Virus genome (UHGV): UHGV-0107762
From: a virus
DNA length: 10,139 bases
Direction: 5' to 3' (one strand)
Part shown: positions 8,432 through 10,139 of the stretch, piece after piece
How positions within the stretch are numbered: position 1 is the stretch's first letter
Layout of the letters: every line of letters starts with the position of its first letter
The notes under the pieces: model-generated
Seen by the model: the letters and a program-made list of their open reading frames with translations, nothing else
The model's database searches: none
Told to the model about the DNA's origin: nothing
Position numbers and translations under genes: made by a program

Positions 8432-8565
8432 ATGGTGGGTTTGCTCTTAAGTTCATGAGTCCCTCTCTTTCAGGAACTTACCGATGAATCAGTCAGTTGC
8501 CAAAGTTTAGTTGTGGACTTACGATGACTTCATAACACAAAAATTACGGGGCATCCGCTAAGTTC

Positions 8566-10089
8566 ATGGCATATACCATCTTACATTTATCGAGGAACAA
8601 CCAGAGAACTCATCTCATAGTTGATGATGTGACTACCCTACCGGTCATGTTCGCCACAATTTATGGAATGAATGAACTGAGCAAGAAAAGCCTAGGGACT
8701 CAAGAAAACATTTTGTGTTCGCTGCGTTTCTTTTACGTCTATTACTATAAGAAGCATAAACAAACATTTGACTACGATTTCTATCGGTCTGGCTACAATA
8801 TCTCCTGTTTTATCAGGGAGCTTGATGGCTTCTTTACTTATCTGCTCGGGAAGCAGCACCTGAGTGACGAGACCGACATAATCTCTAACGGGTTTTTACA
8901 TTCGGCACTCTCCAGAACCAACAAGTCCACCTATGGTAACCACGTCAGAAACGTTGGCCGATTCCTTAAGTATCTCAACTATAGATATATGAATCTGGCA
9001 TACCAAGATATGTCACCTACTGAAGCTCACCAGATTAACCAGGCGAACCATAGAGATCTCGCTGCCAGAATTAAGGTCTTCAATAGAGTTGAAGTATCCA
9101 GGAACGAACCAGCTCACCGATACAAAAGTATCACCAGCCAGCAAAGTATCGAACTAACGAACATGTTAATCCCCTCCACTCCTGAATTTTCAGATATCGA
9201 GACCGGCGAACTATTCACGGCCGTGGTTAATCCCCAAAACCCATTCGATTCAGGATTTCAACAATACCGTAACTACCTTATTCACCGGTTAATGTTTAAC
9301 TATGGCTTACGTGTTGGTGAAGTTCAATTGTTGATGAAGGATTGCGTGGGGCCAACCCTTCCAGACTCACGAGGTAACATTCGTTTCATCCTGATTGTAC
9401 AAAATCTACCAGATGATGTAGTTGACCCAAGGAAACAACAACCTTCACTCAAGACTGAGCATTCACAGCGACAAATCGAACTAACCGAAGATGACTTCAT
9501 TATGTTTACCATTTATATGGAGCAATATCGGTCCCCATTATTTGAAGAGAAAAAAATTGTTGACCATGAGTTTGTTTTTATTAAAGGCTCAGGTAGGTTA
9601 ACTCCATTAACTTACGATGCAATTCGAACATTTTATAAGGAAAAAATTGATCCGGCATTCATTGCCCTATTCCCTCATTATCGTACGAAAAGTAATAAAA
9701 ATATTAATAATATGGTTAATATAACACCACACGTTGGGCGGCATACTTGGGCTAATATCACTCTTGAGTTTATTTACAATAGTCTCCTGAGTGAATCACT
9801 AATACTGGCGCAAGACTATGGTATTCGAGCAAGGATGAATGGAGTACTTGAACCAGCTATTGAACAACTTCGTGCTTTAGGCGGCTGGTCACTGACCAGT
9901 AAAGTTCCATTAAGATATGCCAAGCGGTTTATTGAAGTGGTGAGTAACCAGAGCAACTATAAGCGTACGAAACATTCAGATATGCATTTAGCTTCCCCAG
10001 AAACAAACATTTCGCAAAGAAAAACCTCCAACTTGCTAGAAGATAATGTTTATGACGAAGACTTCACATTCAAAGATCTATTCAACTGA
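8566..10089 (+). CDS. Tyrosine site-specific recombinase (integrase family), atypically long (507 aa)
   Basis: Catalytic motifs read from the translation: box I NYGLRVGEVQLL (Arg), box II HVGRHTWA (His-x-x-Arg), then LGGW and LRYAK (Tyr nucleophile). Long N-terminal region of about 240 aa, AT-rich codon usage. Starts 135 bp downstream of dif. Confidence 0.75.
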   Translation: MAYTILHLSRNNQRTHLIVDDVTTLPVMFATIYGMNELSKKSLGTQENILCSLRFFYVYYYKKHKQTFDYDFYRSGYNISCFIRELDGFFTYLLGKQHLSDETDIISNGFLHSALSRTNKSTYGNHVRNVGRFLKYLNYRYMNLAYQDMSPTEAHQINQANHRDLAARIKVFNRVEVSRNEPAHRYKSITSQQSIELTNMLIPSTPEFSDIETGELFTAVVNPQNPFDSGFQQYRNYLIHRLMFNYGLRVGEVQLLMKDCVGPTLPDSRGNIRFILIVQNLPDDVVDPRKQQPSLKTEHSQRQIELTEDDFIMFTIYMEQYRSPLFEEKKIVDHEFVFIKGSGRLTPLTYDAIRTFYKEKIDPAFIALFPHYRTKSNKNINNMVNITPHVGRHTWANITLEFIYNSLLSESLILAQDYGIRARMNGVLEPAIEQLRALGGWSLTSKVPLRYAKRFIEVVSNQSNYKRTKHSDMHLASPETNISQRKTSNLLEDNVYDEDFTFKDLFN

Positions 10090-10097
10090 GAGCGGTA

Positions 10098-10117
10098 TCA
10101 CCGGGGGTGTTTTTTTT
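10098..10117 (+). terminator. Weak candidate intrinsic terminator after the recombinase gene
   Basis: Short stem CACC/GGTG with a GGG loop, followed by a run of eight T, 10 nt after the stop codon. The stem is marginal. Confidence 0.3.
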
Positions 10118-10139
10118 AAAACCCATCCCCTTCACTTTA

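Follow-up and report, generated by a model that had tools for sequence, protein, structure and literature searches.

To our knowledge, dif is the one site that every circular chromosome of the bacteria considered here must keep, and the elements known to us to exploit it are either borrowers of the host recombinases XerC and XerD, namely IMEX phages and islands, or transposers that sit adjacent to the XerC arm, namely members of the IS1202 family. A different group of mobile elements, the GInts, consists of islands with a ginABCD operon at the 5′ end, variable cargo and an AT-rich 3′ end (PMC5385486). All four gin genes are needed for excision and integration of the GInts of Pseudomonas, the cuts being staggered by 6 nt, and canonical GInts have an internal promoter upstream of ginA; their published targets are an ABC-transporter gene, ssb and a ribonucleotide reductase gene (PMC5385486). 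[quoted passage not shown] Here, we describe one end of an island in UHGV virus genome UHGV-0107762, a stretch of 10,139 nucleotides that is called the window below, where a gene for a 507-aa tyrosine recombinase starts beside an intact dif site. Judged by its sequence, this gene is ginA, the first gene of a ginABCD-type operon from a divergent clade of GInts. We consider it highly probable that a GInt-class island has integrated at the outer edge of the XerD arm of dif, that dif was left intact, and that the island is moved by its own recombinases.

The position of the island follows from comparison with the empty site of Escherichia coli K-12 (NC_000913.3). The window contains a single exact match to the 28-bp dif site GGTGCGCATAATGTATATTATGTTAAAT (0 expected by chance), and homology to K-12 ends at 8431, which is the last base of dif. 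With a slash marking the junction, K-12 reads ...TTATGTTAAAT/CATGTCTGAGTG to the right of dif, and the window reads ...TTATGTTAAAT/ATGGTGGGTTTG. In CP063503, the K-12 sequence from the right of dif picks up again 33,703 bp later, after ...CTCAAACCCAGAATAGTTAAAT. The left junction (attL) is ...TTATGTTAAAT/ATGGTGGG, the right junction (attR) is ...CAGAATAGTTAAAT/CATGTCTG and the empty site in K-12 is ...TTATGTTAAAT/CATGTCTG. GTTAAAT is the only sequence repeated at both junctions, and the 6-bp spacer is likely to be the GTTAAA within it. Across the XerD arm as a whole, the direct repeat matches at 7 of 11 positions (TTATGTTAAAT and AATAGTTAAAT), 7 bp of it being perfect.

In the right junction, ATTTCCCTCAA-ACCCAG-AATAGTTAAAT, only 4 of 11 positions agree with the XerC arm and none or one of 6 with the central region, and the inner four bases of what stands in the place of the XerD arm are AATA, as against TTAT in dif. 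Had XerC and XerD made the exchange within the central region, the right junction would contain a complete chromosomal XerD arm. As the arm there is incomplete, the crossover was not made at the Xer cleavage positions, and probably lies in or at GTTAAA(T). The left terminal arm TATGGTGGGTTTG is inverted relative to the right-end arm CAAACCCAGAATA at 11 of 13 positions, and its GGGTTT core is conserved in the relatives of the clade. When the two ends of the island in CP063503 are joined on paper, the deduced circle junction is CAAACCCAGAATA-GTTAAA-TATGGTGGGTTTG (across the join, ...CTCAAACCCAGAATAGTTAAATATGGTGGGTTTGCTC...). As deduced, this is the usual core layout of a tyrosine recombinase, that is, a 6-bp spacer between 13-bp arms, and it comes near to the arms of 13-19 bp and the spacer of 6 bp known from SEs and GInts (PMC10214605, PMC5385486). 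The last 100 nt of the island have a G+C content of 24%, compared to 46% for the whole island, so that the AT-rich 3′ end of GInts is present here also.

The sequence from 8432 onward occurs in 91 of 5426 complete E. coli genomes (1.7%), and the matches begin at dif whatever the left neighbour. An uninterrupted K-12-type dif with its right flank is present in at least 3823 genomes, which makes the insertion the derived, minority state. The suggestion, made in a first-pass annotation of the window, that the recombinase could be a host gene is thereby rejected: comparison of strains with and without it shows that it is not a conserved core chromosomal gene at this locus, and it is also found on plasmids and in other genera. 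The same annotation had offered a second integrative element beside dif as one explanation, and this is the one that the data support, since the 507-aa open reading frame (ORF) is the first gene of a GInt-type island of ~34 kb (33.7 kb in CP063503) with mapped junctions. The right end seen in CP063503 is shared by 34 genomes and by plasmids; E. coli EH09-18-41 (CP063503) and 1368KP are among the carriers that have kept both ends. GinA is 100% identical in amino acid sequence among E. coli chromosomes, E. coli and Citrobacter plasmids and Pseudocitrobacter, which lends indirect support to recent mobility. A set of 556 records at 90-95% identity was considered as a second gin family and rejected; these records vanished when the phage and dif part of the query was left out, so the match had been to the end of the prophage and not to the recombinase.

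Extension of the analysis past 10139 revealed three further operon genes and then the rest of the island. The four genes of CP063503 and CP061749 overlap one another and encode proteins of 507, 556 (annotated as 'integrase'), 845 (hypothetical) and 167 aa (hypothetical). Of the second gene, ginB, the window holds the beginning, and its translation matches the integrase WP_000169430.1, which is the ginB product in both genomes. A homologue scan using one genome per species yielded 50 loci, of which 17 are closer (GinA identity 30-100%) and 33 are distant; loci are cited below by their L numbers where needed. All four genes are collinear in the closer loci and other relatives with intact operons (L007-L023, L061 and L064). 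The distant loci, from Pseudomonas, Stutzerimonas, Xanthomonas, Rhizobium, Burkholderiales and others, give weak tblastn matches that are likewise collinear, with best E values of 1e-13 for GinA, 1e-10 for GinB and 1e-11 for GinC. One of them, L030 in Stutzerimonas, is an overlapping 428/521/697/151-aa operon situated directly past the 3′ end of ssb. Insertion at ssb has been published for GInts (PMC5385486), and a canonical GInt is thus among the distant collinear homologues. The ORF following GinC is small throughout, with 146-195 aa in all loci of the clade and 133-191 aa in 28 canonical loci; a GinD protein is expected to be small, with a C-terminal helix-loop-helix or coiled coil.

The first-pass annotation had identified the 507-aa ORF beside dif, reading away from it, and had named recombinase motifs in its product. 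The ORF is real, with a gap of 134 nt between dif and the ATG, and the motifs hold: R249 (in YGLRVGE), K296, H389, R392 and H393 (in PHVGRH), W441 (in GGW) and Y451 (in LRYAK) align properly and are invariant among 24 homologues, down to 29% identity. Residues 1-34 are also conserved in this alignment (M1, D20, T23, T24 and P26), and this supports the start at 8566 over the shorter annotated products. RefSeq start sites for the same gene vary, giving 507, 473, 434 or 359 aa (window 8566 versus 8668; L001 15268, L002 16822, L057 12579). Sequence-only family searches were weak: phmmer gave no match between GinA and the PDB, and a profile built from the 24 homologues had only marginal matches to XerA. 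The fold was therefore assigned using an AlphaFold2 model built on the homologue alignment (mean pLDDT of 81.8) and Foldseek, for which the top matches were full-length Cre and XerH (probability 1.00, ~430 aligned columns). In this model, the N-terminal half of GinA is a helical core-binding domain that follows a short beta-hairpin (residues 3-20), and a region that had been described as not recognisable can thus be recognised from its predicted structure. GinA has what defines the tyrosine recombinase superfamily: the R-K-H-R-H/W-Y residues and, in the model, a two-domain fold like that of Cre and Xer.

GinB belongs to the same group of proteins, and GinC appears to be related to it. GinB aligns to the catalytic domain of GinA in hhalign, and 43 sequences share its R266, K298, R381 and Y413; this conservation does not extend to the first His of box II. 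GinC aligns to GinB over the box II region with an hhalign probability of 86.7%, and GinC residues 240-269 align with box I of GinA. Residues R252 (in GFRFQE), K296, H509, R512, H513 and Y544 of GinC are invariant in 45 of 45 sequences, canonical loci included. GinC has been described as being without part of the catalytic motif, either the first Arg (PMC5385486) or RHRY (PMC10214605). The invariant residues suggest that, contrary to these statements, GinC may be a third catalytically competent recombinase. Both proteins also have a conserved C-terminal cluster of four cysteines (C472, C479, C487 and C490 in GinB; C706, C715, C721 and C727 in GinC), which possibly forms a zinc-binding module.

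The association with Xer sites extends across the clade. A full, species-type dif abuts the left end of the element, 125-515 nt upstream of ginA, in 12 taxa: Pseudocitrobacter, Buttiauxella, Enterobacter pasteurii, Citrobacter, Providencia burhodogranariea, Vibrio hepatarius, Aeromonas bestiarum, Vibrio sp. J1-1, V. barjaei (one arm mismatch), Shewanella, Acinetobacter pittii and Aliivibrio salmonicida. Photobacterium marinum has dif and the left end, with 2.5 kb inserted ahead of ginA, and the contigs of Providencia heimbachae and V. halioticoli start inside the Xer site. Altogether, relatives abutting dif come from about 15 taxa in five gammaproteobacterial orders, and span GinA identities from 100% to 30%. 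The orientation of ginA relative to the Xer site is fixed, on chromosomes and plasmids alike. On plasmids, the gin operons abut Xer-type sites that share the XerD arm TTATGTTAAAT and differ in the XerC arm and the central region. These are TAGTGCGCATAA and GATGGA in E. coli plasmids of ~190-300 kb, ATTTCGTATAA and TAGAGA in A. baumannii pABA-2f10, GGTACATATAA and CGAGGA in the E. coli IncHI1B plasmid pEC2-4, AGTGCGCATAA and TCATTG in a K. pneumoniae plasmid and AGGGCGTATTA and CGTGTC in an Aliivibrio wodanis plasmid. Thus, the 11-bp XerD arm alone is shared by all occupied sites, and XerC arms, central regions and right flanks vary. No dif-like site was found in the ~16 kb of each of the 33 distant GInt loci, where the best match had 7 mismatches in 25.

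Other arrangements were observed at Xer sites. Most of the 62 E. coli plasmid matches consist of only the first 37-40 bp of the left end, and the one inspected (L058) adjoins a Xer site: the remnant ATGGTGGGTTTGCTCTTAAGTTCATGAGTCCCTCTC lies beside the plasmid site TTAGTGCGTATAAGATGGATTATGTTAAAT (L058 6001-6037), as it apparently does in many plasmids of 180-270 kb among the ~60 other E. coli plasmids concerned. This remnant looks like the scar of a lost or deleted element. In pX14-3-NDM (L060 3394-3440), the right end ...CAGAATAGTTAAAT directly abuts an apparent left end that belongs to another gin element (CACCTACTGTGGTAAATAAGTTCATATG; TTCATA at +21), and the left end in L010, at ~6470-6490, comes after a right end of another kind. 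In A. pittii CP040903 (L061 1620-8815 and 2297-2324), a filamentous prophage lies between a degenerate dif-like site and the true dif, with the gin element opposite, which is the same three-part layout as in the E. coli window. Elements of the ISNCY/IS1202 family (ISKpn21 and ISLad2 types) occur on the XerC side of Xer sites that have a gin element on the XerD side, two of them in tandem in L003. As read from these sequences, one Xer site can have three unrelated kinds of mobile element at its flanks.

Short repeats lie just inside the island. The first-pass annotation had reported a 10-bp direct repeat, TAAGTTCATG, in two copies between dif and the start codon, as a possible recombinase-binding site. 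There are indeed exactly two copies in the window (0.04 expected); they are at 8448-8457 and 8559-8568 instead of 8447-8456 and 8548-8557, and the second is not confined to the space before the gene, since it overlaps the start codon (ATG 8566-8568). A third, degenerate copy (gacTTCATAac) lies between them, directly past the -10 hexamer of a promoter-like site. The motif of copy 1 (TTCAYR or TACAYG) is found at a spacing of 19-20 nt from GTTAAAT in every relative examined, chromosomal or plasmid, and reads TACATG or TACACC in those at 30% protein identity. Copy 2 is present in the same relative place as aacTTCATA/G in L008, L009, L012, L015, L016 and L018, and copy 3 is kept in L012, L016 and L017 though the start codon there is at least 120-170 nt further downstream. 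After copy 3, a stretch gtatttaacagtattc.gatttaccataaa is conserved in these three relatives (L012 ~5610-5660; L016 ~145-200; L017 ~7840-7890) and is absent from the E. coli element.

The repeats are concentrated at the ends of the island. Six of the 10 copies of GTTCAT[AG] in its 33.7 kb lie within the terminal 400 nt, where 0.12 is expected, and the right end has GTTCATGAAC, TTATGAAC and GTTCATAAG at 117-189 nt from the junction. Binding by a recombinase is plausible in view of the position at +21, which is kept in diverged relatives, and of the clustering at both ends. The TTCATG-type repeats are probably accessory binding sites for a protein encoded by the element. The placement of two of them over the promoter-like site and the start codon suggests that the ginA operon may be autoregulated; the same promoter-like hexamers are also visible in the left ends of L012, L014 and L015.

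The following mechanism is proposed. The island would excise as a circle carrying the joined core site, and GinA and GinB, together with GinC and GinD, would recombine the circle junction with GTTAAA(T) of the host at the end of the XerD arm. After integration, dif would be whole at the left end of the island, and its right end would have a short pseudo-arm. To recognise the target, the Gin proteins would either read the sequence of the XerD arm or use the XerD that is bound there. As far as we know, this arm is almost invariant in the Gammaproteobacteria, occurring once per chromosome and also on many plasmids. As a target, it would be a safe site over a broad host range, and would permit tandem accumulation beside other elements that exploit dif, the filamentous prophage being an example. 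Tandems are to be expected because integration regenerates the target, and L010, L015 and pX14-3-NDM may be tandem or hybrid junctions. Catalysis by the Gin proteins, the exact position of the crossover and the role of the repeats are what we infer from these comparisons. A variant of the mechanism, in which target choice would go beyond plain DNA recognition and the Gin recombinases would exploit arm-bound XerD or the XerCD-dif complex in the integrative synapse without Xer catalysis, was considered because the XerD arm is the sole common feature of the sites and the host site has no obvious second binding arm for the Gin recombinases. We regard this variant as rather unlikely. If true, it would mirror on the XerD side what IS1202-family elements do on the XerC side.

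Three other explanations of the locus were weighed. The island could be an IMEX that host XerCD integrated at dif, as with CTXphi, TLCphi and the gonococcal genetic island, its recombinase genes being cargo or having some other purpose. The exact position at dif, beside an IMEX filamentous prophage, fits this explanation, as does the ending of both junctions in the outer part of the XerD arm. However, attR lacks the XerC arm and the central region and differs in the inner bases of the XerD arm, which puts the crossover outside the central region. Furthermore, Xer exchange needs homology in the central region, whereas the central regions of the targets vary freely among plasmids, and an IMEX has by definition no recombinase of its own, whereas a conserved four-gene recombinase operon accompanies these ends. 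Integration by XerCD is, on this evidence, very improbable. Another explanation starts from the fact that xerS and xerH sit beside their own dif sites: the recombinase would be a Xer-like enzyme, of the host or carried by the island, that acts on dif in alternative dimer resolution or in modulation of dif. The adjacency of the gene to dif, its constant orientation and the presence of XerH among the structural matches would be as expected, but the gene is carried by only 1.7% of E. coli genomes, all of which retain a xerCD-type dif. It is also found by plasmid Xer sites, it lies within a four-gene operon at the edge of variable cargo, and the subterminal repeats and terminal inverted arms are typical of a mobile element. 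We would give such a role hardly any credence. The suggestion of the first-pass annotation that the protein is an accessory recombinase acting at dif survives in a narrow sense only, in that the outer 7 bp of the XerD arm form part of the island's attachment site; there is no sign of a role in Xer recombination.

The remaining explanation concerns the class of the element, which could be an SE and not a GInt, or could move by an SE-like copy-out that never leaves an empty site. SEs share with this island two catalytic tyrosine recombinases, a third large protein of recombinase fold and a small auxiliary protein, and their imperfect terminal inverted repeats of 13-19 bp with a 6-bp spacer (PMC10214605) resemble the 13-bp arms around GTTAAA. 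The relatives are commonest in the Vibrionales, which are the main host group of SEs, and some GInts too leave no empty site (PMC5385486). The gene order is nevertheless that of GInts: catalytic, catalytic, large and small, as in ginA-ginB-ginC-ginD, and not intA-tfp-intB-srap as in SEs (PMC10214605). Here, the second product has the conserved R, K, R and Y and a weak match to PF00589, and the large protein of 845 aa comes third. In addition, the distant collinear homologues include a canonical GInt inserted at ssb. On gene order and these homologues, an SE, or an SE-like mode of movement, is judged improbable.

Several observations weigh against assignment of the island to the GInts, or against its integration at the XerD arm by its own recombinases. 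The direct repeat is 7 bp, shorter than the 10-17 nt quoted for GInts, and both junctions were mapped in one island type only, on the E. coli chromosome and a plasmid. A search of the relatives for their right ends, as GTTAAA-type cores after the inverse of each left arm, found none within the 8-9 kb flanks, since the islands are longer than these flanks; a position in A. pittii (L061, ~17554) is a candidate right end, for which confirmation would take an empty site. The available upstream sequence of L013 and L063 has no Xer site, and in L010 and L015 GTTAAAT is preceded by sequence that is not Xer-like. On the protein side, GinC has an apparently complete R-K-H-R-H-Y set in place of the published partial loss, and GinD has no similarity to canonical GinD in a profile-profile comparison (hhalign probability of 0.6%), so that its homology is positional only. 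The PF00589 match of GinA scores 16 bits, below the gathering threshold of 27.1, its NCBIfam matches to XerA and XerC are marginal and below curated cut-offs, and the Pfam and NCBIfam matches of GinB, including a weak one to PF00589, are likewise under curated thresholds. Finally, many E. coli copies have been cut down by deletions mediated by the insertion sequences IS903B, IS1 or IS5, and the copy in the window may be immobile for the same reason.

The cargo in CP063503 comprises the type 3 fimbrial cluster mrkABCDF with mrkJ, a Hachiman pair (HamA and a DEAD/DEAH helicase) and a restriction endonuclease, together with several insertion sequences, a metallophosphoesterase, a peptidase of family M48 and a protein of the TIGR02391 family (L003 21500-31742; L006 30525-49001). 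From these annotations, the island brings adhesion and anti-phage functions together. A 6.6-kb interval in E. coli SEV1 was considered as a cargo-free minimal element and was rejected, as an IS1-mediated deletion has removed ginC and ginD. On the XerC side of dif, the window is occupied by a filamentous (Inovirus-type, CUS/Ypf-like) prophage that terminates at the perfect E. coli dif and is certainly an IMEX. [quoted passage not shown] Strain 1368KP has two tandem copies of this prophage. The phage collection contains no close relative, the best match being ~80% identity over 190 nt of the secretin gene (IKe and PEar phages).

Table 1. Positions of the features discussed (window coordinates, unless a locus is named)
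Feature	Position	Strand	Remarks
Chromosomal dif, GGTGCGCATAATGTATATTATGTTAAAT	8404-8431	+	Intact 28/28, identical to K-12 dif; host side of left junction (attL); XerC arm GGTGCGCATAA, central region TGTATA, XerD arm TTATGTTAAAT
GTTAAAT, outer 7 bp of XerD arm	8425-8431	+	Putative crossover (overlap) region
GTTAAA, likely 6-bp spacer	8425-8430		
Inner terminal arm of island, left, TATGGTGGGTTTG	8431-8443	+	Inverted repeat (11/13) of right-end arm CAAACCCAGAATA
Subterminal motif copy 1, TAAGTTCATG	8448-8457	+	TTCATG 8452-8457, at +21 from junction
Promoter-like TTGCCA-17-TACGAT	8497-8525	+	Weak candidate, 9/12 in consensus scan
Subterminal motif copy 2, degenerate, ATGACTTCATAAC	8524-8536	+	TTCATA 8529-8534
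Subterminal motif copy 3, TAAGTTCATG	8559-8568	+	TTCATG 8563-8568
ginA, tyrosine recombinase of 507 aa	8566-10089	+	Catalytic R249, K296, H389, R392, W441, Y451
ginB, first 29 codons	10052-10139	+	Runs off window; 556 aa in full-length loci; overlaps end of ginA by 38 nt
ginB in L003	16655-18325		
ginC in L003	18322-20859		
Filamentous prophage	1 to ~8403		XerC side of dif
II/X-family replication protein of prophage	1722-2816		
Gly/Ser repeats (GGGES/GGS) of attachment protein	~4190-4330		
Zot-like ATPase of prophage	5269-6363		
Secretin of prophage	ends 7636		
IS1202-family copy in L001	13548-14894		
IS1202-family copies in L003	11218-14904		Two tandem
IS1202-family copy in L057	10516-11862		
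IS1202-family copy in L058	4460-5857		
IS1202-family copy in L065	5383-6708		
IS1202-family copy in L066	409-1815		
IS1202-family copy in L067	3780-5126		

Integration at the XerD arm would make these islands a third independent strategy for the exploitation of dif, in which a self-sufficient tyrosine-recombinase island joins at the XerD arm. Gammaproteobacteria of at least five orders show this arrangement, as do large resistance plasmids (IncHI1B and NDM-carrying), and it would account for a variable region by the dif of E. coli in which genes for type 3 (mrk) fimbriae lie together with Hachiman and restriction genes for defence. Tandem accumulation of elements at dif is predicted from it. 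It also offers a tractable E. coli model, with a well-characterised 28-bp target, for the poorly understood recombination machinery of GInts and SEs, and raises the questions of whether XerD is required for targeting and whether insertions affect dimer resolution or the integration of IMEX phages. The element type itself, the GInt, is known and its presence in Escherichia has already been counted; the XerD edge of a Xer site as a target is apparently unreported. Neither dif nor Xer is mentioned as a target in the GInt and SE papers (PMC5385486, PMC10214605), and the papers on XerC-side insertion by the IS1202 family (10.1101/2022.12.17.520857, PMC10132070) do not mention integrases. A full-text literature search, with most subscription journals outside its coverage, returned nothing on recombinase islands with a junction at the XerD arm.

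Compared to described GInts (PMC5385486), the island has the same overlapping four-gene operon at its 5′ end, with genes in the same order and of similar size (507/556/845/167 aa versus 428/521/697/151 aa in L030). GinA, GinB and GinC are homologous and collinear in both, the cargo varies, the 3′ end is rich in A+T, the direct repeats are short and imperfect, and insertion is site-specific and leaves the target feature intact. The island differs in that all four proteins are larger and 21-29% identical to the canonical ones, GinD being undetectably similar, in that GinC apparently has all catalytic residues, and in the conserved subterminal repeats of the TTCATG type. The likeness to SEs (PMC10214605) lies in the two catalytic tyrosine recombinases, the large recombinase-fold protein and the small auxiliary protein encoded at one end, in the imperfect terminal inverted repeats around a 6-bp spacer, in the gammaproteobacterial and mainly Vibrionales hosts, and in the lack of mobilisation genes; the SE order, intA-tfp-intB-srap, is different. 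Tn554 (tnpA, tnpB and tnpC), compared by description only, also inserts site-specifically with a 6-bp core. Unlike the gin elements, it has no third large protein, is found in Firmicutes and targets att554 in radC.

The remaining relatives are those that share the site. IMEX (CTXphi, VGJphi, TLCphi, CUS/Ypf-type phages and the gonococcal genetic island) also occupy dif, can build up in tandem and leave a functional dif. They have no recombinase, and their crossover is made by XerC and XerD in the central region of dif, whereas the gin element has its own recombinases and uses the outer end of the XerD arm. For the ISAba32/ISAjo2 subgroup of the IS1202 family (ISKpn21, ISLad2 and others), insertion on the XerC side has already been published (10.1101/2022.12.17.520857, PMC10132070). 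Like the gin elements, members of this subgroup mobilise themselves, use Xer sites on chromosomes and plasmids, have a fixed orientation and accept any central region, and the two kinds of element occur at the same sites (L001, L003, L057, L058 and L065-L067). In contrast, the IS1202-family elements depend on a transposase of the DDE type, and their insertions lie 5-6 bp away from the XerC arm and produce target duplications, whereas the gin elements rely on tyrosine recombinases and have their junction at the XerD arm.

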